Origin: a bacterium
GTDB lineage: Bacteria > Patescibacteriota > Patescibacteriia > UBA1558 > UBA10009
Assembly: GCA_018672055.1 (NCBI GenBank)
Contig: JABHGM010000001.1
Span: forward strand, 432,679-496,678
Length of the DNA stretch: 64,000 nucleotides
Direction: 5' to 3'
Shown here in pieces: positions 1-27,214 of the stretch. The translations under genes were made by a program, and so were the position numbers. How positions within the stretch are numbered: the stretch's first letter is position 1; the number at the start of each line of letters is the position of its first letter. Below the pieces are notes generated by a model that was given only the letters and a program-made list of their open reading frames with translations, had not been told where the DNA came from and did not search any database.

Positions 1-786
1 TGGCTTGGTGAACTTATGTCAGAAAAGAAAATTGGTAATGGTATTTCTTTATTAATTTTTGCTGGTATTATTGCTTCATTACCAAGTGCAGTTCAAAGAC
101 TAATTGCTACTTTTGATGCAACACAAGCTTTTAATCTATTAATCTTCTTAGGTATTGCTATAGTTACTATTGTAGTTGTAGTTATTATTACTGAAGGTCA
201 AAGAAATATTCCAGTTAATTATGCTAGACGTGTTAGGGGTAATAGAATGTATGGTGGTGTAAATACTCATTTACCACTTAGAGTAAATATGGCTGGTGTT
301 ATTCCAATTATTTTTGCAATTTCAATTATATTAATACCTCCAATGATTGCTCAATTTTTTGTTAGCGCAACAACTCCTTGGGTAGCAGGTGGCGCTAGAT
401 TTGTAGTTAATTTATTTCAAAATCAAGTTTTTTACGGCTTATTCTATTTTATAATGGTTTTTGCCTTTACTTATTTCTATACTTTTGTAGTATTCCATCC
501 TCATCAAATTGCTGAGAATTTACAAAAACAAGGCGGTTTTATACCAGGTATTAGACCAGGTAGACATACTGCTGATTATTTACAAAAAACAGCTAACAAG
601 ATATTACTTGCTGGCGCATTATTCTTAGGTTTAATTGCTGTATTACCGATTATTATTCAACCAATTACTGGCATATCCAGTTTAGCTATTGGTGGTACTA
701 GTTTATTAATTGTAGTTGCTGTAGTTATTGAACTTGTTAAACAGATAGACTCTCAACTTACTATGAGAGATTATGATGGATTATAA
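1..786 (+). CDS. secY: Preprotein translocase SecY (5'-truncated by window edge)
   Basis: GIGNGISL-like motif, PLRVNMAGVIPIIFA, GGFIPGIRPG, GGTSLLIVV; frame is open from base 1. Confidence 0.98.
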   Translation, partial: WLGELMSEKKIGNGISLLIFAGIIASLPSAVQRLIATFDATQAFNLLIFLGIAIVTIVVVVIITEGQRNIPVNYARRVRGNRMYGGVNTHLPLRVNMAGVIPIIFAISIILIPPMIAQFFVSATTPWVAGGARFVVNLFQNQVFYGLFYFIMVFAFTYFYTFVVFHPHQIAENLQKQGGFIPGIRPGRHTADYLQKTANKILLAGALFLGLIAVLPIIIQPITGISSLAIGGTSLLIVVAVVIELVKQIDSQLTMRDYDGL

Positions 787-810
787 TAAATAGATAATTT
801 ATATATATAA

Positions 811-836
811 AAAAGCCTCACTCATGTGGGGCTTTT
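811..836. terminator. Bidirectional intrinsic terminator between secY and the convergent lipoprotein gene
   Basis: AAAAGCCTCAC-TCAT-GTGGGGCTTTT hairpin with A/T tracts on both sides. Confidence 0.75.
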
Positions 837-840
837 AAGT

Positions 841-1206
841 TTATCCAGTGAATTCACTCAATAATATATAATATTTCTTATCAATTATTATTGGAGGAAT
901 ATTTTTAACAGGAAATAAATGTTTATTTTGATAATCTAATATAACATCTACTAGCATTTTTCCTGGTCCTTCTTGATAGATAAATAATTTATTATTTTCT
1001 TTCCATTCTACTCTAAGAATATTATTATGAATATTACTGATATTATCATAGTCAGCTTTATTATTTAGAGCAGGGTGGTGTTGAGACAGAATCTTGATTG
1101 CCCAACTTGGTCTTTTATCATCAATAGATAGTTCTGGAGCAACCGACTTATTAAAGAAACATCCTGAAAATATTAATATAATGAACAAAAGTCTTAACTG
1201 CTTCAT
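841..1206 (-). CDS. Hypothetical lipoprotein
   Basis: Signal peptide with lipobox (IFSG-C); AGGAGG SD upstream; own candidate promoter. Confidence 0.75.
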   Translation of the reverse strand: MKQLRLLFIILIFSGCFFNKSVAPELSIDDKRPSWAIKILSQHHPALNNKADYDNISNIHNNILRVEWKENNKLFIYQEGPGKMLVDVILDYQNKHLFPVKNIPPIIIDKKYYILLSEFTG

Positions 1207-1234
1207 GTTGTCCTCCTATTATTTATTTAATTTT

Positions 1235-1262
1235 ACTTTAGCACTACAGCTTTATTTGTCAA
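1235..1262 (-). promoter_or_regulatory. Sigma70-type promoter for the 1206 gene
   Basis: TTGACA-16 nt-TAAAGT with extended TG. Confidence 0.5.
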
Positions 1263-1292
1263 ATAAAAAAACCATCTTTTGATGGAGGTTGG

Positions 1293-1333
1293 GTAAGGTG
1301 AAATATCATGTTATTCATAATATTTCACCTTAC
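1293..1333. repeat. 14-bp perfect inverted repeat downstream of the 1670 gene
   Basis: GTAAGGTGAAATAT-13 nt-ATATTTCACCTTAC; on the minus strand it is followed by a CCATC/GATGG-T7 terminator-like hairpin. Confidence 0.75.
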
Positions 1334-1343
1334 AGTTGTTTTC

Positions 1344-1670
1344 TTACCAGTTTATGGTAAAGGTATATTTTCCGTCATTCCTTCTATGTATAGAAGTTAG
1401 CGGGCCATATCCTTCAGATTCAATCTTGAGAAGATTGAAGTATAGTCTCATATTATACGTATCTATACCTAGGAAGCGAACTTCCTCAAATCCGGTATAA
1501 TCATCACCAACATTAATTAGGACAGTGTCGCTCCATTCTATTCCATTTGAAATGGCTTTGTATAACATCTCTGGCCCTTCGCTTTTGTGCCAAATCCTCT
1601 CTGTTGTTATATGAGTGTCAGCTTGACTGAAACCTAGACTGAGAAACATTATTATTGCTATAACTTTCAT
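1344..1670 (-). CDS. Hypothetical secreted protein
   Basis: 108-aa ORF with signal peptide ending SQA; AGGA upstream. Confidence 0.65.
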   Translation of the reverse strand: MKVIAIIMFLSLGFSQADTHITTERIWHKSEGPEMLYKAISNGIEWSDTVLINVGDDYTGFEEVRFLGIDTYNMRLYFNLLKIESEGYGPLTSIHRRNDGKYTFTINW

Positions 1671-1711
1671 TTCATTTCCTTTTTTTTATTTTTATTTACT
1701 TTAATTTTTTT

Positions 1712-1757
1712 AAAAAGAATAGGTGGGGGAAATTAATTGAATTAATTCACCCCACCC
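1712..1757 (-). terminator. Intrinsic terminator closing the structured RNA
   Basis: Minus strand GGTGGGG...CCCCACC stem followed by TATTCTTTTT. Confidence 0.6.
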
Positions 1758-2427
1758 TTTTAAAATCACCAGCTCAGCATTTGCTTTAAGGATTTAATGT
1801 CCTTCTTTTGATATATACTCTCAAGAGATGAAAGTACAGTTCTGGTGTTTTATTAAATCAACGCTTGTGTACTATATTTTTTCAGCTGAATTTCCATATG
1901 GGAAATATATATAGCATACGAGTCTCTTACGTTGATAAATGGTGTCCTTTGACCGATAGATTAACAAGTAAACTATCGATTAGATTGAACATTGTAAGGT
2001 ATAAGCTTGTTACACGTTACAATGTTTAATCTAAAGTATTTATGTTTATCAACTTTTAGTTATGGAGCGGAAGCAAATTATGTGATCTGCCCCGCTCCAA
2101 AGTGTTGTGACATTTTACTACCACAATTCTGCCTGAGGAATTAATCTTGAACTAAATGGGCATTTAAATGAATATTTCCCAAGTTCATGATTTTAGTAAA
2201 AAGTAATCGCTATTAAGGGAGAAACTCCCAAAATATTGATCTTACTCTCTCCTTCACTTGTTTGTGGAGAGCGAACTCTCCCCAAGCAGGATTGTGATAA
2301 TAATTAGCGTTTTATCGTAAAAAGGCTAACTTTAGATAAATACGTCCCTTAGAGAGTGAATTTAGCTAAAATTAGCCTTATTAGGTATATTCTCTCTCCG
2401 TTATATATTTGGTTTTCAATGTTTAAT
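1712..2427 (-). ncRNA. Putative large (~710 nt) structured non-coding RNA or long structured leader, family not recognised
   Basis: No ORF >=60 aa. Near-continuous stems at 2322-2379, 2115-2303, 2063-2099, 1931-2053, 1857-1936 and 1761-1852. G-U pairs and a UUCG loop favour the minus strand. Bounded by a promoter and a terminator. Confidence 0.65.
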
Positions 2428-2432
2428 ATAGT

Positions 2433-2461
2433 AGTATATCATATATACTAAAACTTGTCAA
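2433..2461 (-). promoter_or_regulatory. Near-consensus sigma70 promoter driving the structured RNA
   Basis: TTGACA(2461-2456)-17 nt-TATACT(2438-2433), with TG extension. Confidence 0.75.
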
Positions 2462-2520
2462 GACCTCTTATTTTTATCTAATTAGTGCTATAATAATTAA
2501 AGTTTAAACTTAAAAAAATT

Positions 2521-3144
2521 ATGAACTATATTATTTTAGGAGCTCCTGCCTCTGGCAAGGGAACTCAAGCAGAACTATTATCAAAAAAATTAAATATTCC
2601 ACATATTGCATCAGGGATTATATTACGTGAAAATATTAATAATAAAACAGAACTTGGTTTAAAAGTAGAAGCAATATTAAATAGAGGTGATTTAGTGTCT
2701 GACGATATTGTGATTGATTTAATTAAAAATAGGTTAGAGCAAGGTGATTGTAAGGATGGATATATATTAGATGGTTTTCCTAGAACAATAGCTCAAGCTG
2801 AAGCTTTAGATGGAATAACAAAAATTGATAAAGTAATTGATATAGTAGTTAATGATGATGTAGCTGTTTCACGTATTACTAATAGAAGAATGTGTAAATC
2901 TTGTGGTAATCCATATCATTTAGAATTTAATCCTTCTAAATTAGAAGGTGTTTGTGATAAATGTAATGGTGAACTTTATTTAAGAGAAGATGATAAAGAA
3001 GAAGTAGTTAAAGATAGATTAAAAGTTTATCATGATCAAACTGAGCCATTGAAGGAGTATTATAAAGAAAAAATAATTACTATTGATGGTATACCTAGTA
3101 TAAAGCAAGTAACTGAAAGTATTTTTAAAAATTTACAAATTTAA
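2521..3144 (+). CDS. adk: Adenylate kinase (Zn-lid type)
   Basis: GAPASGKGTQA P-loop, LDGFPRT, CxxC...CxxC lid. Confidence 0.97.
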   Translation: MNYIILGAPASGKGTQAELLSKKLNIPHIASGIILRENINNKTELGLKVEAILNRGDLVSDDIVIDLIKNRLEQGDCKDGYILDGFPRTIAQAEALDGITKIDKVIDIVVNDDVAVSRITNRRMCKSCGNPYHLEFNPSKLEGVCDKCNGELYLREDDKEEVVKDRLKVYHDQTEPLKEYYKEKIITIDGIPSIKQVTESIFKNLQI

Positions 3145-3145
3145 T

Positions 3146-3904
3146 ATGTCAGGTGACGTTACAATAAAAACTGAAGAAGAAATAATTAAACTCAAAGAAG
3201 GTGGTAATATATTAGCTACTATTTTGAGTGAGCTTGGTAAAGCTGTTAAGGTTGGTATTACAACTAAAGAATTAGATCAACTTGCTAGAGATTTAATGAA
3301 AGAATACAAAGTAGAGCCTTCTTTTTTAAATTATAGTGATCCACCTTATCCAGCAGTATTATGTACTTCAGTTAACCAGCAGCTTGTTCATTGTATTCCA
3401 TCAGATTATGCTTTAAAGGAAGGTGATATTATTTCTCTAGATTGTGGTATTTGGCATAAAGGTTTATGTACGGATATGGCTAGAACATTTAGTGTTGGTA
3501 AAATAAGTGAAGAAACTAAGAAGTTATTGAAAGTAACGCGTAAAGCTTTAGAGATTGCCATTGAAACTGCTAAACCTGGAAATACTATTGGTGATTTAGG
3601 CTATAATGTACAGACATATGTTGAACAACAAGGTTTTTCCGTAGTTCGTAAATTAGTTGGTCATGGTGTTGGTTATGAAGTTCATGAGCCACCAGCAGTA
3701 CCTAACTTTGGTAAAAAAGGTGAAGGCATAGCATTTAAAGAAGGCATGGTACTTGCTTTTGAACCTATGGTAAATATTGGTCATCATGATATTGTTACTG
3801 GTTTAAATGATTGGGATATTTCTTCAAAAGATGATAGTTTAACAGCTCATTTTGAAGATACTATAGTTATAACTTCAAAAGGAGCAGAAATAATTACTAA
3901 ATAA
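3146..3904 (+). CDS. map: Methionine aminopeptidase type I
   Basis: GDIISLDCG, GHGVG..VHE.P, EPM, HFEDT motifs; follows adk. Confidence 0.97.
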   Translation: MSGDVTIKTEEEIIKLKEGGNILATILSELGKAVKVGITTKELDQLARDLMKEYKVEPSFLNYSDPPYPAVLCTSVNQQLVHCIPSDYALKEGDIISLDCGIWHKGLCTDMARTFSVGKISEETKKLLKVTRKALEIAIETAKPGNTIGDLGYNVQTYVEQQGFSVVRKLVGHGVGYEVHEPPAVPNFGKKGEGIAFKEGMVLAFEPMVNIGHHDIVTGLNDWDISSKDDSLTAHFEDTIVITSKGAEIITK

Positions 3905-3913
3905 AATAAGCCA

Positions 3914-4060
3914 CTAACGTTTAGTGAAAGTGGCTTTCAGCATTGGTGCAAATATTAACCAAAGTAAGATGTTTACTATTTGATAGAATATAGTGAAAAT
4001 AGCAAAACATGGAATTAATATGATTAATATCATACAGTGATACCATTTAGCTGGATGCAT
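3914..4060 (-). CDS. Small 48-aa membrane protein not in the ORF track (MHPAKWYHCMILIILIPCFAIFTIFYQIVNILLWLIFAPMLKATFTKR)
   Basis: Manual translation; AGGAGG SD; TTGATT-17-TAATAT promoter at 4114-4086. Confidence 0.6.
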   Translation of the reverse strand: MHPAKWYHCMILIILIPCFAIFTIFYQIVNILLWLIFAPMLKATFTKR

Positions 4061-4115
4061 AGCTTCCTCCTATTATTTTAAATAAATATTAATACATATA
4101 ACATAATAAATCAAG

Positions 4116-4487
4116 ATGTCTAAAATATTAGGTATAGATTACGGAGAAAGTAAAGTTGGTTTGGCTATTTCTGATAGTGATACTAAATTAGCTGTGCCTT
4201 TGGAAATTATTAAAAATGAAGAATTAGAAGATAAAATAAAGTATTTTATAGATAAAGAATTAGTTGAAAAGATAGTAATTGGTTTACCAATTAGTTTAGA
4301 TGGTACAGATACTGAGCAAACTAAAGTAGTTAGAGAATATATTAGTTATTTAAAAGAAAACTTTAAAGTTGAAATTATACCTCAAGATGAAAGATTAAGT
4401 ACAAAAGAAGCTAGTAGAACTGGTCATGATGATGATGTAGCTGCAATGTATATATTACAAACTTATCTTGATTCTAAATATGGATAG
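4116..4487 (+). CDS. yqgF: YqgF/RuvX family pre-16S rRNA nuclease
   Basis: ILGIDYG..KVGLAISD, IVIGLP, DERLST, D.VAAMYILQ. Confidence 0.93.
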   Translation: MSKILGIDYGESKVGLAISDSDTKLAVPLEIIKNEELEDKIKYFIDKELVEKIVIGLPISLDGTDTEQTKVVREYISYLKENFKVEIIPQDERLSTKEASRTGHDDDVAAMYILQTYLDSKYG

Positions 4488-21777: not shown

Positions 21778-22134
21778 ATGTCCACAAAGAAAAAAATACT
21801 TATCGGAGAAGATGAAAGGCCAATGGCAAAAGCTTTAGAGCTTAAATTAAATAGCGTTGGTTTTGAAGCTAAGGCTGTTTTTAATGGAAATGAAGTAATT
21901 GAGGAATTAACTACTAATAAGTATGATTTGTTGTTACTTGATTTAATTATGCCTAAGCTAGGAGGTTTAGAAGTTATTAGAGAAGCTGGTAAAGAACAAA
22001 ATATTATTGTTGTTTCTGCTGTAGGACAGGATAAAGTAGTTAAAGAGGCTAAAGATTTAGGCGCTAAAGGCTATATAGTAAAACCCTTTGACAATAAACA
22101 AGTGATTGAGGAAATAAATAAAGTTTTAGGTTAA
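21778..22134 (+). CDS. cheY: Single-domain response regulator, CheY-like
   Basis: ED, LLDLIMP, VSAVGQ, KPF; first gene of the che cluster. Confidence 0.75.
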   Translation: MSTKKKILIGEDERPMAKALELKLNSVGFEAKAVFNGNEVIEELTTNKYDLLLLDLIMPKLGGLEVIREAGKEQNIIVVSAVGQDKVVKEAKDLGAKGYIVKPFDNKQVIEEINKVLG

Positions 22135-22155
22135 TATTTAAGTGAATATTAATTC

Positions 22156-23199
22156 ATGGTTAAGAAGAAAAAAATAAAAGTTCTTATTGTTGATGATTCT
22201 TTTTTTATGAAAAAGCTCTTACGAGAGCTTCTTTCGTCAGATTCTAGTATTGAAGTAGTAGGTGAAGCTAAAACTGGTTCAGAAGCAATAGGTGAAACAT
22301 TAAGGTTAAAACCTGATGTTATTACTATGGACTATAATATGCCTGGTATGACAGGCGCTGAAGCTATTAGAACGATTATTAATAATGATAAGCTAGAAAG
22401 ACCAGCCATTATAATGCTTTCTGCTTACGCTAAAGAAGGCGCTGATGAAACTATTGAATGTTTAAGAGCTGGTGCTGTAGATTTTATTGCTAAACCTTCT
22501 GGAGAGTTATCACTTGATATTGAAAAAATAAGAGAGGATATATTAAAAAAAATACATACCGCTAAACTTGCTAGAATTCGTAGATTTCCAGGCACTAAAA
22601 AGAGAAGTGGTAAAGTGTCATTTAAAAATATAAAAGGAAGTAAGATTATAGTAATTGGTGCTTCAACTGGAGGTCCGCCTGTAGTTGAAGATATATTACT
22701 TGCCTTACCAAAGAATATTCCGGCTACAATATTTGTAGCTCAACATATGCCAGATTTTTTTATAAGTCGTTTTGCAGAAAGACTTGATAAATTAATGGAT
22801 TTAAAAGTTAAAGTGTTATCAGATAATTCACTTATTGCTCCTAAACAAGTAATTATAGTAAATGATAATTTTAAAATAATTGGTGATAAGATTAAAAGAA
22901 TAAAAATTTGTAAAGTAGATGAAGAATGTGGTGCTAGACCATCTATTGATAGTACAATGATTTCATTATCAAAAGCTTATGGTAAAAAAGTAATAGGTAT
23001 TATGCTATCAGGTATGGGTGAAGATGGATTTGAAGGTTTTAAAGAGATTAGAAGAAATAAAGGATTTACTATAGCTCAGGATTTAAAAACTGCAGTAATA
23101 ACTTCTATGCCTGAAACAGTAATAGAAGCAGGTTTAACGGATTCTGTACTATCACCTAATAAAATAGCTAAAAAGATTATTGAATTATGTAGTGAATAA
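22156..23199 (+). CDS. cheB: Chemotaxis protein-glutamate methylesterase
   Basis: REC domain (IVDDS, MDYNMP) plus GASTGG, QHMP, GMGEDG catalytic motifs. Confidence 0.95.
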   Translation: MVKKKKIKVLIVDDSFFMKKLLRELLSSDSSIEVVGEAKTGSEAIGETLRLKPDVITMDYNMPGMTGAEAIRTIINNDKLERPAIIMLSAYAKEGADETIECLRAGAVDFIAKPSGELSLDIEKIREDILKKIHTAKLARIRRFPGTKKRSGKVSFKNIKGSKIIVIGASTGGPPVVEDILLALPKNIPATIFVAQHMPDFFISRFAERLDKLMDLKVKVLSDNSLIAPKQVIIVNDNFKIIGDKIKRIKICKVDEECGARPSIDSTMISLSKAYGKKVIGIMLSGMGEDGFEGFKEIRRNKGFTIAQDLKTAVITSMPETVIEAGLTDSVLSPNKIAKKIIELCSE

Positions 23200-23201
23200 A
23201 T

Positions 23202-24974
23202 ATGATTGATCTATCAAAATTTAAAGATATATACGTTAGTGAAACTGAAGACCATTTACAAAAATTAAATGATAATCTTTTAGCATTAGAGAAAGACTTG
23301 TCAAATAAATCATTACTTAATGAATTAATGAGATCAGCTCATACTTTAAAGAGCTCATCAGCTACAATGGGATTTAATGATATGGCATTTCTAACTCATG
23401 TATTAGAAGATGTATTTGATTATGCTAGGAATGATCTATTTAATATTACTTCAGAAACAGTTACTAAATTATTTGAAGCTATAGATAGTTTAGATAATTC
23501 ATTAAAAAGTGTTAAAGAGAAAAATAAGGAATCAGATTTAAAAAAAGTAATTGAGAATATTAAAAAGATTACTGGCGTTAAAACAGAAGGTATTGGAAAA
23601 TCTGTTAGACATGAAGATGGTAAACCACTTGTTGAAAAAAAAGAAGTAAAAAGTGGTGATAATAAGTTAGATGAATTAAAAGAAGCAGATAAAATAACAT
23701 CTATTAAAGTACCGGTTGAGAGATTAGATAAATTAATGGATTTAACTGAAGAGTTATTAATAGATAGAATGAGAATTGAAACCATATCAGGGTATGATTT
23801 AGATAGTAGTTTAACAGATGAAAAGTTAACTTTAGAAAGCCTATTATTTAAGTTAACACCTGCTGTTGAGCATTTAAGTGGCTTAATCTCTAATTTACAA
23901 TATTTAGTCATGCAAGCACGTTTAGTGCCTCTTGGGCAAATATTTGCTCGTTTTCCACGCATGATTAGAGATTTAGCTACTGAAAAGAAGAAAAAAATTA
24001 ATTTAGAAATAAGTGGTGAAGATTTAGAAGTTGATAGAACCATAGTTGATAAATTAGGTGAACCTATTGTACATTTACTTAGAAATGCTTTAGATCATGG
24101 TATTGATACTGAAGGTACTATTAAATTAAAAGCAATACGTGAAAAAGATTTTGTATCAGTTATTGTTGAAGATAATGGCTTAGGAATTGATTTTAAAGAA
24201 GTCGTAGAAGCAGCTGTAAGAAAGAATATAATTGGTAATGATGAAGGAAATAATTATTTAAGTAAGATAGAAAAGAATAAGATATTTGATTACGGTGCTG
24301 ACAAGAAATATGTTGCTGATAGAAAACAAATTGAAGATATATTATTTAATCCAAGACTTAGTACTAATAAGCAAGTTACTAAAACTTCAGGAAGAGGAGT
24401 GGGCTTAAGTGTTGTTAAAAAGTTTAGTGAAGAAATAAATGGTAACATCATATTAGAATCACCATTATCTAAAAAAGGTGGTACTAGATTTACTTTAGAG
24501 TTACCACTTACACTAGCAATAATAAATGCATTACTTGTTAAAATAGATAATTCTATGTTTGCTATACCGTTTTCTAGTATTGCCAGAGCAGTTTCAGTAA
24601 AACCTGAAGATATTAAGAGTATGGCAGATCAAGATGTGGCTGTTGTTGATAATATGAGAGTGCCACTTGTAGATTTAGAAAGAGTATTTCATTTAGTAAA
24701 GCCATTACAAGGTAAAAAAACTATACAACAGCTTGAAAAAGAGAGTAAGCAAATTAATAAGACGGTTGTTTTAGTAAAACGTGGTAAAGAATTAGCTGGT
24801 ATAATAGTAGATAGGTTATTAAATGAGCAAGAAATTATTGTTAAACCATTACCTTCTGTTTTAAAAGGTGTAAAAGGATTTTCTGGCTCTACTATACTTG
24901 GTGATGGTGAAACTATACTTATTCTAGATGTTATTACTTTATTACAAGATTCAAGTAAATTAATTAGAGTTTAA
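23202..24974 (+). CDS. cheA: Chemotaxis histidine kinase lacking a P2 domain
   Basis: Hpt AHTLKS, dimerisation RLDKLMDL, HLLRNALDHGI, DNGLGID, SGRGVGL, C-terminal CheW-like P5. Confidence 0.96.
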   Translation: MIDLSKFKDIYVSETEDHLQKLNDNLLALEKDLSNKSLLNELMRSAHTLKSSSATMGFNDMAFLTHVLEDVFDYARNDLFNITSETVTKLFEAIDSLDNSLKSVKEKNKESDLKKVIENIKKITGVKTEGIGKSVRHEDGKPLVEKKEVKSGDNKLDELKEADKITSIKVPVERLDKLMDLTEELLIDRMRIETISGYDLDSSLTDEKLTLESLLFKLTPAVEHLSGLISNLQYLVMQARLVPLGQIFARFPRMIRDLATEKKKKINLEISGEDLEVDRTIVDKLGEPIVHLLRNALDHGIDTEGTIKLKAIREKDFVSVIVEDNGLGIDFKEVVEAAVRKNIIGNDEGNNYLSKIEKNKIFDYGADKKYVADRKQIEDILFNPRLSTNKQVTKTSGRGVGLSVVKKFSEEINGNIILESPLSKKGGTRFTLELPLTLAIINALLVKIDNSMFAIPFSSIARAVSVKPEDIKSMADQDVAVVDNMRVPLVDLERVFHLVKPLQGKKTIQQLEKESKQINKTVVLVKRGKELAGIIVDRLLNEQEIIVKPLPSVLKGVKGFSGSTILGDGETILILDVITLLQDSSKLIRV

Positions 24975-24984
24975 AATATATTTT

Positions 24985-25599
24985 ATGGCTAAAAAAATAA
25001 CAAGTTTTGAAATTGATCAATTGAAGGAGATTACAAATATAGGGGCAGGTAATGCAAGTACTGCTTTATCACATATGCTTGGTAAAAAAGTACAAATGAC
25101 TGTACCAGAATCATATGTAGGTAAGATAGAAGAAGTTCAGAGAAATTTTGGAGAAGCTTCTGATAAAGTATTAGCTTTATTTCTTAAGATGCACGGAGAT
25201 TTAGAAGGAGCTATGGCTATGATATTTAAGCCAGAAGATGCCTTATCCTTTATGGAAATACTTACTAAGAAGAAAAAGAAAAGCCTTGATGAAATGGATG
25301 AATTAGATGAGTCATCCATTTTAGAAGTAGGTAATATATTACTTGGAGCTTCTATTACTGCTCTAGCTAAATTTTTAGATTTAAATATTACTCATACAAT
25401 TCCTGATATGACAGTTAATATGCTTGGTGCTATTATGGATACTGTTTTATTAGAAATAGGTAGTGATAGTGAAGAAATATTAGCATTTAAAGTTAACTTA
25501 CACTTTTCTGACGATAACATTGGTGGAGATATTTATTATATCTTTGATCCTGCAGCCAGTGGTATTATTTTAAAAGCTACTAAGGAGAAAGTTAAATAA
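24985..25599 (+). CDS. cheC: CheY-P phosphatase CheC
   Basis: Two E-x2-N motifs: EITNIGAGNASTAL and EVGNILLG. Confidence 0.92.
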   Translation: MAKKITSFEIDQLKEITNIGAGNASTALSHMLGKKVQMTVPESYVGKIEEVQRNFGEASDKVLALFLKMHGDLEGAMAMIFKPEDALSFMEILTKKKKKSLDEMDELDESSILEVGNILLGASITALAKFLDLNITHTIPDMTVNMLGAIMDTVLLEIGSDSEEILAFKVNLHFSDDNIGGDIYYIFDPAASGIILKATKEKVK

Positions 25600-26076
25600 A
25601 TGAGTGAAGAAATACATATTAAAACTGCAGAGCTTGTAGTAAGTCATAATGATAATATATTAAAGTCAGGAAGTATTGGCTCTTGTATTGTTATTACATT
25701 ATATGATACTAAAAAAAGAATAGGTGGTATGGCTCATGCTATGCTTCCACATAGAAAAAATAAAATGAAAAACTATGAGGTAAAACCTACTGAAGCAAAG
25801 TATGTTGATGAAGCTGTTGATAATTTAATGAAGGGAATTAAGGATATGGGTGGTGATATTACTGCTTTGGAAGCAAAAATAATAGGTGGGGCTACTATGT
25901 TTAAGAAATTATCAGGTGATAAATTTGGTATAGGTTATAGAAATATAGAGAAGGCTAAAAAAGTCTTACAAAGCCATAAAATAAAGATAGAAAAAGAAGA
26001 TACTGGCGGTAGTAATGGTAAAATGGTAGAATTTAATTTAGCTAATGGAGTAATCCATATATCTACTAATATATAA
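25600..26076 (+). CDS. cheD: Chemoreceptor glutamine deamidase CheD
   Basis: IGSCI, GGMAHAMLP, AKIIGGA, IGYRN, EDTGG. Confidence 0.93.
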   Translation: MSEEIHIKTAELVVSHNDNILKSGSIGSCIVITLYDTKKRIGGMAHAMLPHRKNKMKNYEVKPTEAKYVDEAVDNLMKGIKDMGGDITALEAKIIGGATMFKKLSGDKFGIGYRNIEKAKKVLQSHKIKIEKEDTGGSNGKMVEFNLANGVIHISTNI

Positions 26077-26080
26077 AAAT

Positions 26081-26455
26081 ATGACTAAAAAAAAGATTTT
26101 AATCGTAGATGATGAAGCACCATTGTCAAAAGTATTAAAAGATAAATTCGAATCAACTGGTTTTGAAGTATTAACAGCTAAAAATGGAGAAGAGGGTTTA
26201 ATGAAAGCTGTTACTCAAAAACCAGACTTAATCTTGCTTGATATAGTTATGCCTAGATTAGATGGTATGACTATGCTTAAAAAGTTAAGAGAAGATGAGT
26301 GGGGCAAGGGTGTAGAGGTTATACTCTTAACAAATTTGAGTGATAATGATAAGGTAAGGCAAGCTTTAAAGAATAATGTATATGATTATTTAATTAAATC
26401 TAATTGGAAACTTGAAGATTTAGTAATAAAAGTAAAAGAAAAATTAGAAGTTTAA
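26081..26455 (+). CDS. Single-domain response regulator
   Basis: IVDDE, LLDIVMP, LTN, KSNW. Confidence 0.92.
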   Translation: MTKKKILIVDDEAPLSKVLKDKFESTGFEVLTAKNGEEGLMKAVTQKPDLILLDIVMPRLDGMTMLKKLREDEWGKGVEVILLTNLSDNDKVRQALKNNVYDYLIKSNWKLEDLVIKVKEKLEV

Positions 26456-26459
26456 ACAT

Positions 26460-26846
26460 ATGAATGATAATAAAACAGTATTAATATTAATAGTTGAAGA
26501 TGAAAAGCCATTAAGAGAAGCTCTTAAAACTAAATTAAGAAGTGAAGGTTTTGATGTTATGGAAGCAGCTAATGGAGAAGAAGGCTTAGAGATTATAAAT
26601 AGCAAGAAACCAGATTTAGTATTACTTGATTTAATGATGCCTGGTATCCCAGGAGAACAAGTATTAAAAGAAATGAATGATTCAGGTTTAATTAAAGAAA
26701 TACCTGTTATTGTGTTATCTGTTAAGGGTAATGATACTACGATAAGGAATTGCATTGATCAATTAGGAGCTGTTGATTATATGAGTAAGTCAGATTATTC
26801 ATTAAAGGAAATAGTTGAAAAAATTAACAAATTATTAAAAATATAA
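26460..26846 (+). CDS. Single-domain response regulator
   Basis: IVEDE, LLDLMMP, LSV, KSDY. Confidence 0.92.
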   Translation: MNDNKTVLILIVEDEKPLREALKTKLRSEGFDVMEAANGEEGLEIINSKKPDLVLLDLMMPGIPGEQVLKEMNDSGLIKEIPVIVLSVKGNDTTIRNCIDQLGAVDYMSKSDYSLKEIVEKINKLLKI

Positions 26847-26848
26847 TT

Positions 26849-27214
26849 ATGAAAAAAGTTTTAGTTGTGGAGGATGAAAGAACATTAAGAGATGCTTTAG
26901 TTAAAAAGTTATCTAAAGAAGAATTTACAGTACTTTCTGCAAAAGATGGTAAAGAAGGATTAGATACTGCTCTAGCTGAACATCCTGATTTAATCTTACT
27001 TGATATTTTAATGCCTAAAATGAATGGCATTGAAGTGTTACAAAAGTTAAGAGAAGATGAATGGGGAGCTAAAGCAAAAGTAATTGTTTTAACTGTTTTA
27101 AATGATCAAAAGAAAATTTTAGAAGCTTTAGAAAAAGGAGCTTATGAATACCTTGTAAAGAGTGATTGGAAATTAGAAGACATTGTTGAAAGAGTCAAAG
27201 AAAAATTACAGTAG
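26849..27214 (+). CDS. Single-domain response regulator (paralog of 26081)
   Basis: VVEDE, LLDILMP, LTV, KSDW; shares KLREDEWG with 26081. Confidence 0.92.
   Translation: MKKVLVVEDERTLRDALVKKLSKEEFTVLSAKDGKEGLDTALAEHPDLILLDILMPKMNGIEVLQKLREDEWGAKAKVIVLTVLNDQKKILEALEKGAYEYLVKSDWKLEDIVERVKEKLQ

Follow-up and report, generated by a model that had tools for sequence, protein, structure and literature searches.

A structured RNA gene of a new family in Patescibacteria and a palindromic promoter element copied in its 5′ hairpin

The window analysed here is a 64,000-nt stretch of a Patescibacteria genome in which secY ends at position 786 and adk starts at 2521. A preliminary description of this DNA proposed that a large structured RNA lies antisense between the two genes, in an 850-bp stretch without an open reading frame (ORF) of ≥60 amino acids (aa). 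The ORF-free stretch is as described (1671–2520, longest ORF 54 aa); the insertion, however, amounts to ∼1.7 kb, because two orphan ORFs also lie between secY and adk (Table 1). The 108-aa ORF contains no Pfam domain and has no match at ≥0.9 in the Protein Atlas. The tRNA nearest to the RNA locus is 6 kb away. On the plus strand, positions 2480–2523 give a weak Rfam match to Clostridium-PBP (31 bits against a cut-off of 94) that extends over no more than the start region of adk and its extended −10 promoter. Elsewhere in the window (21778–27214, plus strand), CheC, CheD, a CheB-like start and four stand-alone receiver domains are clustered, in a genome that is tiny.

Table 1. Features of the secY–adk interval, in window coordinates
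Feature	Positions	Strand	Evidence or occurrence
Sigma70-type promoter, TTGACA-17-TG-extended TATACT; predicted start ∼2426	2433–2461	−	Promoter scan
boxA-like motif AACATTGAAAAC	2412–2423	−	Sequence; conservation loose
Purine tract GGAGAGAG on the 5′ side, complementary to P2 loop; partner in a predicted pseudoknot or kissing interaction	2392–2399	−	6–12 contiguous pairs in 6/6 module-bearing homologues
P2 hairpin; arms 2379–2360 and 2341–2322, loop CUCUCU 2356–2351	2322–2379	−	In 6/9 homologues
Core three-way-junction domain; closing helix P4 (2303–2278 with 2140–2115)	2115–2303	−	Covariation, 9 sequences
GGAGAG-UUCG-CUCUCC hairpin; lies in an insertion restricted to the window and G005	2266–2281	−	Alignment
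P5 arm, variable; shrunk to a mini-hairpin in G006	2201–2248	−	Consensus fold, alignment
P6 arm, GGG...GCCC motif, AU-rich tip	2145–2190	−	GGG/CCC 94% paired in 6 sequences; by eye recognisable in 8/9
P7 hairpin, GGGCGA/UCGCCC type	2063–2099	−	In 9/9 homologues
P8 domain	1931–2053	−	Probable homologue of CCCYUAGCUUG/CAAGYUARGGG domain of G006, G007, G008 and G010; lost in G005
Structured 3′ extension, window-specific, single copy	1761–1930	−	Fold; RNA contigs over part
GC stem and U-tract, candidate intrinsic terminator	1712–1757	−	Hairpin plus U-tract scan, −19.5 kcal/mol
Orphan ORF, 108 aa, hydrophobic N-terminus, downstream of RNA	1344–1670	−	Absent from homologous loci
Orphan ORF, 121 aa, hydrophobic N-terminus, convergent with secY	841–1206	−	ORF scan, Pfam scan

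The promoter proposed at 2461–2433 holds up, and carries a TG extension in addition. It has the top score (11/12) among 31 promoter-like sites in positions 1–4200, and its layout of TTGACA, 17-nt spacer and TG extension recurs in all nine homologues of the RNA described below. The letters of the boxA-like motif are likewise in place at 2423–2412. The homologues repeat only a loose TT(G/T)(G/A)A(A/C)AA form of it, which is also present in a related genome that lacks the RNA (G004) and at 7 of 34 strong promoters of the window genome. The GC stem and U-tract suggested as a terminator pass our hairpin plus U-tract scan but are unlisted by the terminator scanner. Among the seven homologues that have an ORF downstream, the window is the sole one with a terminator-like stem ahead of it, lying 40 nt before the ATG. 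Terminator-like elements with no same-strand gene after them occur in G005 (strong) and G003 (weak), and six homologues have no terminator ahead of the next gene.

RNA data came from six runs in three marine studies, each chosen for containing part of positions 1200–2900; four of these runs were analysed. RNA contigs identical to the window cover 1767–1947, 1779–1973 and 1805–1962 (one run per study), and two runs of one study have contigs over the downstream ORF (1402–1686). The contigs carry no strand, ends or level, and support transcription of the 3′ part of the RNA only. No contig in the four runs covers 1974–2520, the conserved core included, or the host’s secY, adk or map; as the runs were selected on 1200–2900 and provide contigs only, these holes in coverage prove nothing.

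With a folding energy of −218 kcal/mol, the minus strand (716 nt) folds far better than shuffled sequence (z −10.5, against z −8.4 for the plus strand; 20 shuffles each), a comparison set beforehand as a check on the RNA. Its halves folded separately give z values of −8.5 and −8.6. The central 300 nt reach z −6.9, which ranks third among the 59 non-coding gaps of ≥400 nt in the 947-kb genome by a rough estimate of eight shuffles each; folding of this strength is thus uncommon in the window genome but not unique. Other strongly folding long non-coding gaps lie at G000 C1:263176–263765, 232641–233642 and 321321–322215 (z −8.2, −7.5 and −6.3), and one of them holds a tRNA.

Several helices had been proposed from the sequence, and most are found as described. 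The P2 hairpin contains 18 Watson–Crick (WC) pairs, one G-U pair and one mismatch. The counts given for the 26-position helix P4 are exact (20 WC pairs, five G-U pairs and one mismatch on the minus strand). P7 and the long inner stem of the P8 domain are both in the predicted fold, and the closing stem of that domain (2053–2045 with 1939–1931) has nine WC pairs. The GGAGAG-UUCG-CUCUCC sequence, placed inside the multibranch domain, is present at 2281–2266 but overlaps the top of P4, so the two helices are mutually exclusive.

Single-copy homologues of the RNA occur in 9 of 11 genomes of the host family, the window genome included, and are spread over eight genera. BLAST identified those in G005 and G006, BLAST together with an HMM that in G009, a covariance model (R1) those in G001 and G003, and synteny with yraN together with an HMM those in G007, G008 and G010 (E 6e-14, 9e-13 and 1e-7). 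In the two remaining genomes, G004 keeps the promoter, which runs directly into an ORF, and G002 lacks the cassette. A second model (R2), whose matches to its nine training sequences are by construction, found no convincing homologue when applied to 75 further order genomes and to 150 genomes sampled from the class. Because the class search was strictly filtered and limited to 17 scored candidates per genome, it may have missed distant relatives. One weak R2 match outside the family lies in G063 (E 0.0095, among the 75 order genomes); three weak R1 matches outside the family (E 0.001–0.002) were rejected as palindromic promoter DNA in which the core is absent. In 21 genomes from other families, the region preceding yraN contained no promoter–RNA cassette. 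Searching genome and metagenome contigs by pattern returned two and five loci, with L112 the sole new close variant; viral contigs had no matches to two patterns, BLAST against plasmids found nothing, and BLAST against phages found only a 47-nt AT-rich match in the promoter region. One locus (L036) in a record labelled uncultured Gammaproteobacterium has the RNA beside a window-type secY, and this label looks doubtful.

The RNA occupies three genomic settings. Six homologues lie head to head with yraN, those of the window and G005 tail to tail with secY, and that of G003 elsewhere. It is in just these three relocated genomes that no yraN was found, and they have kept the RNA. Sequence comparison indicates that the RNA is under purifying selection. 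Between the window and G005 it is 85% identical over +1 to +370, compared with 69% at four-fold sites of secY (70/102) and 55% upstream of the promoter. Likewise, the RNAs of two close relatives (L110 and L112) are ∼98% identical, while the downstream proteins share 48%. These exported-looking proteins (L110:1818–2243 and L112:1432–1878) have undergone either very fast change or replacement.

Folding extends across the family, with z values of −4.9 to −11 for the first 300 nt of the nine homologues, and two helices show the covariation among homologues that had been named beforehand as a check. Over 18 pairs of P4 in nine sequences, 94.4% of 162 cells are paired, a level reached by none of 500 shuffles and far from the 29–56% of slid controls; 10 of the 18 pairs have changed on both sides. 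Deviations in P4 comprise 21 G-U against 3 A-C on the minus strand, which supports the minus strand as the RNA strand. In P7, six of nine pairs have changed on both sides among six sequences. The nine genomes are kin, so these and other counts overstate independence. MAFFT misaligns the three short homologues within the junction, and homology of P5 and P6 across subtypes was therefore judged by eye. Positions 2053–1931 of the window are probably homologous to the P8 domain of four relatives; hand-picked P8 arms gave p values of 0.002, 0.02, 0.18 and 0.58 (1000 shuffles). Positions 1930–1712 have no counterpart in the homologues.

The conserved unit consists of the promoter, the P4 three-way junction and P7 (2303–2063), probably with P8, and the 3′ tail varies freely. 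The core of the RNA is ∼240–370 nt long, or ∼500 nt with the probable P8, and the family is not one fixed 710-nt molecule. The proposal of a structured non-coding RNA on the minus strand is upheld by purifying selection and covarying helices; that of a uniform ∼710-nt unit in the class of ROOL, GOLLD and OLE is not, since the 5′ hairpin is optional (six of nine) and the last ∼220 nt occur in the window only. We are highly confident that the RNA family is real. It is a structured RNA gene of a new family that is, within the genomes searched, confined to one family of Patescibacteria.

Comparison with known RNAs identified no relative. None of the Rfam 15 covariance models, a further check set in advance, matched the window, and across the window and eight homologous loci nothing came near a gathering score; the matches were chance ones of the miRNA-hairpin type. 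Searches of full-text literature gave no description of the RNA or of the palindrome discussed below; a prior listing in a motif table is possible. Like ROOL, GOLLD, OLE and the raiA motif, the RNA is multi-domain and covarying, contains no ORF and has no assigned function. ROOL and GOLLD are reported to lie in phage or prophage genomes, in many cases close to tRNA islands, and GOLLD to combine a conserved 3′ part with a variable 5′ part (PMC12286853). The present RNA, which also has a conserved and a variable part, instead neighbours secY/adk or yraN rather than tRNA islands or prophages, and the viral contigs contained none. The predicted pairing of loop and tract in six of nine homologues, possibly intermolecular, would resemble the kissing loops of ROOL, GOLLD and OLE. 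In contrast to those RNAs and raiA, the RNA matches no Rfam 15 model, its conserved core is only ∼240–370 nt long, it is restricted to one family and it has far fewer invariant nucleotides.

Several other classes were considered and set aside. For SRP RNA there is no S-domain match; Ffh and SRP RNA were not found in the 96.6% complete, single-contig window genome, nor was yraN. The genome’s tmRNA and RNase P RNA lie elsewhere. A riboswitch or gene-specific leader does not fit with unrelated ORFs behind seven homologues and none behind two, and a riboswitch or attenuator was further rejected for want of a conserved expression platform and with a terminator before the ORF in one of seven homologues. 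A MITE or non-autonomous IS was rejected at one copy in each of nine genomes. CrsL, considered as a parallel for a CarD-binding RNA, was dropped, as CrsL is a protein.

The P2 hairpin connects the RNA to a palindromic element found at promoters throughout the genome. The palindrome, RGCTAA-NN-TTAGCY (in duplex form GGCTAATATTAGCC), has ∼30 intergenic sites genome-wide (e.g. G000 C1:84924, 124738, 184922, 421171, 700591, 800478 and 885737). The exact GCTAA-NN-TTAGC form occurs 14 times in the window genome, 11 of them outside the ORF mask; other spacers of 0–7 nt yield 0–1 non-coding copies each. A weight matrix gives 54 matches at a score of ≥11 in this genome, 31 of them non-coding. The 29 stronger sites lead to 13 promoters, at distances from site centre to −35 of 13, 23, 25, 26, 26, 28, 35, 36, 36, 38, 45, 47 and 68 bp, which cluster near 25–28, 35–38 and 45–47 bp, or about −61, −71 and −82. 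The 14-bp pattern is present in 75 of 86 genomes of the order (reversed control 11/86) and in 54 of 81 genomes of the class (control 26/81); family f7 has nearly lost it. Three genomes have it ahead of tuf; it also marks tRNA promoters and, in the window genome, stands before the promoters of two other orphan RNAs, one linked to pth and one to murJ.

The RNA’s own promoter has an upstream site in six of nine homologues, at 36, 36, 36, 36, 58 and 79 bp, so that whole helical turns are kept through two insertions. At L014:1695–1740 and L157:1930–1952, hairpin insertions of 43 and 22 bp separate the site from the −35, with TTGAC duplicated and helical phase kept. The RNA-less promoter of G004 has a site at 45 bp. 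No upstream site is present in the window, G003 or G005 (48 bp were available at L009). Class I activator sites of the CRP/Fis type lie at about −61, −71 and −82. The palindrome resembles them in its whole-turn distances upstream of strong promoters, including those of tuf and tRNA, and differs from them in sequence. It behaves like the binding site of a putative dimeric global activator.

The pth-linked RNA lies between dprA and pth (L069:12683–12900; G000 C1:372683–372900, plus strand), folds with z −7.6 and has no Rfam match; homologues occur in at least five other genomes of the family, and in the window genome the palindrome lies 25 bp before its −35. It was rejected as a paralogue of the secY/adk RNA, no relationship being detectable (9.5 bits, E 0.48). 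For the murJ-linked RNA (G000 C1:699740–700620, minus strand), the palindrome stands 35 bp upstream of the −35. Sequences close to the two ends of this RNA, AAGGAGAGA on the 5′ side and UCUCUCUCCUU on the 3′ side, echo the purine tract and loop of the secY/adk RNA.

Each arm of P2 is one copy of the palindrome or a close variant, with centres at +56 and +96, a link between hairpin and genome-wide element that the preliminary description had missed. The arms score 23.9 and 16.5 on the weight matrix in the window, where the RNA duplex thus reproduces the DNA site, and both exceed 11 in five of the six homologues that bear the module. They are matched to each other at 18, 18, 19, 20, 18 and 16 of 20 positions, compared with 14.5 ± 1.8 for random pairs of genomic sites, and one pair forms a U-A, U-G, C-G series across genomes. 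In the same six sequences, 9 of 20 pairs are invariant in P2 against 2 of 15 in P4; the sequence of P2 is therefore held more tightly than pairing needs. The C-U mismatch in the window’s P2 is a variant also seen in DNA sites. The purine tract and its complementary loop are found in all six genomes with P2 and in none of the three without. Those three (G007, G008 and G010) retain 13, 11 and 7 exact sites, and the absence of P2 from a third of the homologues despite such sites indicates that P2 is not the core function of the RNA. In G003 the arms have decayed as sites (scores 5.0 and 12.2; 16/20 paired), while the genome keeps nine sites.

A search for the protein that reads the palindrome covered 60 hand-picked proteins, out of 939 called ORFs, in a Pfam scan. 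None of the candidates examined was recognisable as CRP or Fis. A winged-helix protein (L088) was rejected because it occurs in five of five test genomes, site-less ones included, as were L073 (four of five, the wrong pattern) and TrmB (not found in two site-rich genomes). A small MerR protein, present in all five test genomes, stays a candidate. All 14 genomes of f7, a family poor in sites, lack an HTH_17 gene, which represents one shared loss; the gene was also not found in 10 other genomes with at least one site. A palindrome site lies within 450 bp upstream of the gene in 13 of 30 loci, and its promoter bears a different repeat, TAGAATATTCTA. The HTH_17 protein is thus unproven as the palindrome binder. 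Upstream of this conserved 99-aa gene (G000 C1:768467; L115–L144), TAGAATATTCTA or close variants form a second palindrome that is often repeated (8 of 30 loci by eye), and it is likely the gene’s own operator. In G001, a 110-nt palindrome-bearing element occurs both after the RNA (L100:1870–1975) and upstream of the HTH_17 gene (L123:1780–1900), and has the look of a small mobile repeat.

The copying of the promoter palindrome in the P2 arms suggests that the RNA may be a decoy, titrating the palindrome-reading protein through the P2 duplex. We offer this tentatively, as the likeliest of the readings considered, though it falls short of an even chance. In this decoy model, a putative activator bound ∼71 bp upstream would switch the RNA on; P2 in the folded transcript would offer the activator a double-stranded RNA version of its site, 20 bp long and kept in place by the pseudoknot and core, and would draw it away from DNA. 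The result would be negative feedback on a regulon that comprises housekeeping promoters and those of tRNAs and other RNAs. Orphan genes downstream of the RNA would be passengers using its promoter. Sequence, conservation, covariation, the census of sites and their spacing are observed here; activation, RNA binding and feedback are inferred. The complete scheme, in which the RNA folds two copies of a global activator site into double-stranded RNA, is switched on by that activator and closes feedback on an undescribed regulon that extends through much of a Patescibacteria class and has further orphan RNA genes among its members, is in our view unlikely. We count in favour of the decoy the covariation in P4 and P7, the conservation of the RNA in three genomic settings and the matching of P2 as RNA. 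Against it stand the three homologues without P2, the decayed arms of G003, the missing upstream sites in the window, G003 and G005, the far wider spread of the palindrome than of the RNA, an arm spacing like that of paired DNA operators and the six homologues without a terminator. A-form RNA is, moreover, normally a poor ligand for DNA-reading proteins.

The decoy has partial precedents in known RNAs. 6S RNA mimics DNA, binds the sigma70 holoenzyme and templates pRNA. Both 6S RNA and Ms1 bind RNA polymerase (PMC9130861). The parallel would be one of working principle, in which a transcription protein is captured by an RNA that resembles a DNA element. The present RNA differs from 6S in having no RF00013 match and a three-way junction instead of a rod with a symmetric central bubble; the element imitated would be an upstream palindromic activator site rather than an open promoter, and the distribution is too narrow for a housekeeping 6S RNA. 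The window genome itself has no Rfam 6S match. CsrB/RsmZ-type RNAs titrate a protein, offering many single-stranded GGA loops to an RNA-binding protein. Their titration logic, and that of the artificially selected anti-transcription-factor RNA aptamers reported elsewhere (PMC4753637), is analogous to the one proposed. Unlike CsrB, the RNA would offer one duplex to a DNA-binding protein.

The same palindromes might instead act within the gene as DNA operators, by roadblock or looping over about four turns, and tune its own or a divergent promoter; the hairpin would then be a tolerated by-product, and the P4–P7 core would have a structural role in RNP or RNA–RNA assembly, similar to that of orphan ornate RNAs. 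The arms are 40, 40, 42, 42, 43 and 66 bp apart, near four helical turns in five of six cases, sites lie downstream of predicted starts elsewhere (e.g. in the leaders of rplJ and gyrB), ordinary promoters in other families contain paired sites (L103, L104), and the core exists without P2 in three of nine homologues. Differences between the arms, however, comprise 10 G-U against 2 A-C with the near-identical G005 left out, and include a compensatory pair; purine tract and loop track the presence of P2; and the 66-bp spacing, that of G009, is off phase. We consider the DNA-operator explanation unlikely, if a serious competitor. Pairing with the ribosome-binding apparatus seems improbable. Here GGAGAG tracts would bind the 16S tail as a Shine-Dalgarno sequence, or the CUCUCC(UU) loop would bind ribosome-binding sites of mRNAs or small RNAs as an anti-Shine-Dalgarno sequence, with the pseudoknot as off-switch. 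It is consistent with a 16S 3′ end of GAUCACCUCCUUU, AGGAG before 54 of 852 ORFs, P2 loops of CUCUCCUU in G001, G003 and G009, and tracts like GGAGAG/CUCUCC or CUCCCUCCU in the RNAs linked to murJ and pth; yet the window and G005 have a loop of just CUCUCUAA and G006 one of CUCUAA, and both tracts are absent from the three short homologues.

A different question is whether the RNA serves the gene behind it. Seven of nine homologues have a same-strand ORF at +372 to +756 after the start, hydrophobic N-termini mark four of these seven compared with 116 of 476 genome ORFs of 90–300 aa, and one study’s RNA contigs span both 1767–1947 and the ORF (1402–1686). With no terminator before the downstream gene in six homologues, a general leader role is possible: promoter, boxA-like element and 5′ structure would form a giant cis leader or expression platform that drives, stabilises or antiterminates transcription into fast-exchanged, often exported, orphan genes. 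The core is intact in G005 and G003 with no gene downstream, though, no relationship links the downstream proteins from one genus to another (best E 0.18), G004 drives its ORF from the same promoter without the RNA, and the window has its terminator-like stem just before the ATG. We regard the cis role as rather unlikely, and the narrower suggestion of a leader specific for the gene at 1670 fails, as each of the seven homologues has a different gene behind it and two have none. That the core is retained where no gene follows speaks for a trans-acting RNA accompanied by passengers, and we lean towards action in trans. Finally, the three genomic positions within one family, the variable flanking cargo and the repeated 110-nt element directly after P7 in G001 might suggest a non-autonomous mobile element or a decayed intron or IS remnant that folds without a cellular role. 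The G001 repeat does imply that some 3′ tails are accreted mobile DNA. For the core, a mobile remnant is largely refuted, and we consider it highly improbable, given a single copy per genome, a conserved promoter of its own, purifying selection and covariation, and the searches of Rfam, plasmids, viral contigs and phages described above.

Patescibacteria have tiny genomes and few recognised regulators. The locus provides a new covarying RNA family whose natural deletion variants, with or without the 5′ module and with or without P8, define what to fold. Should the hairpin not bind the protein that reads the palindrome, the RNA remains a narrow orphan RNA. If it does, DNA mimicry by RNA would be extended from RNA polymerase to a sequence-specific factor. 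The palindrome itself is a candidate global promoter element, with activator-like spacing, across the order and much of the class, and makes transcription regulation in Patescibacteria a testable question.
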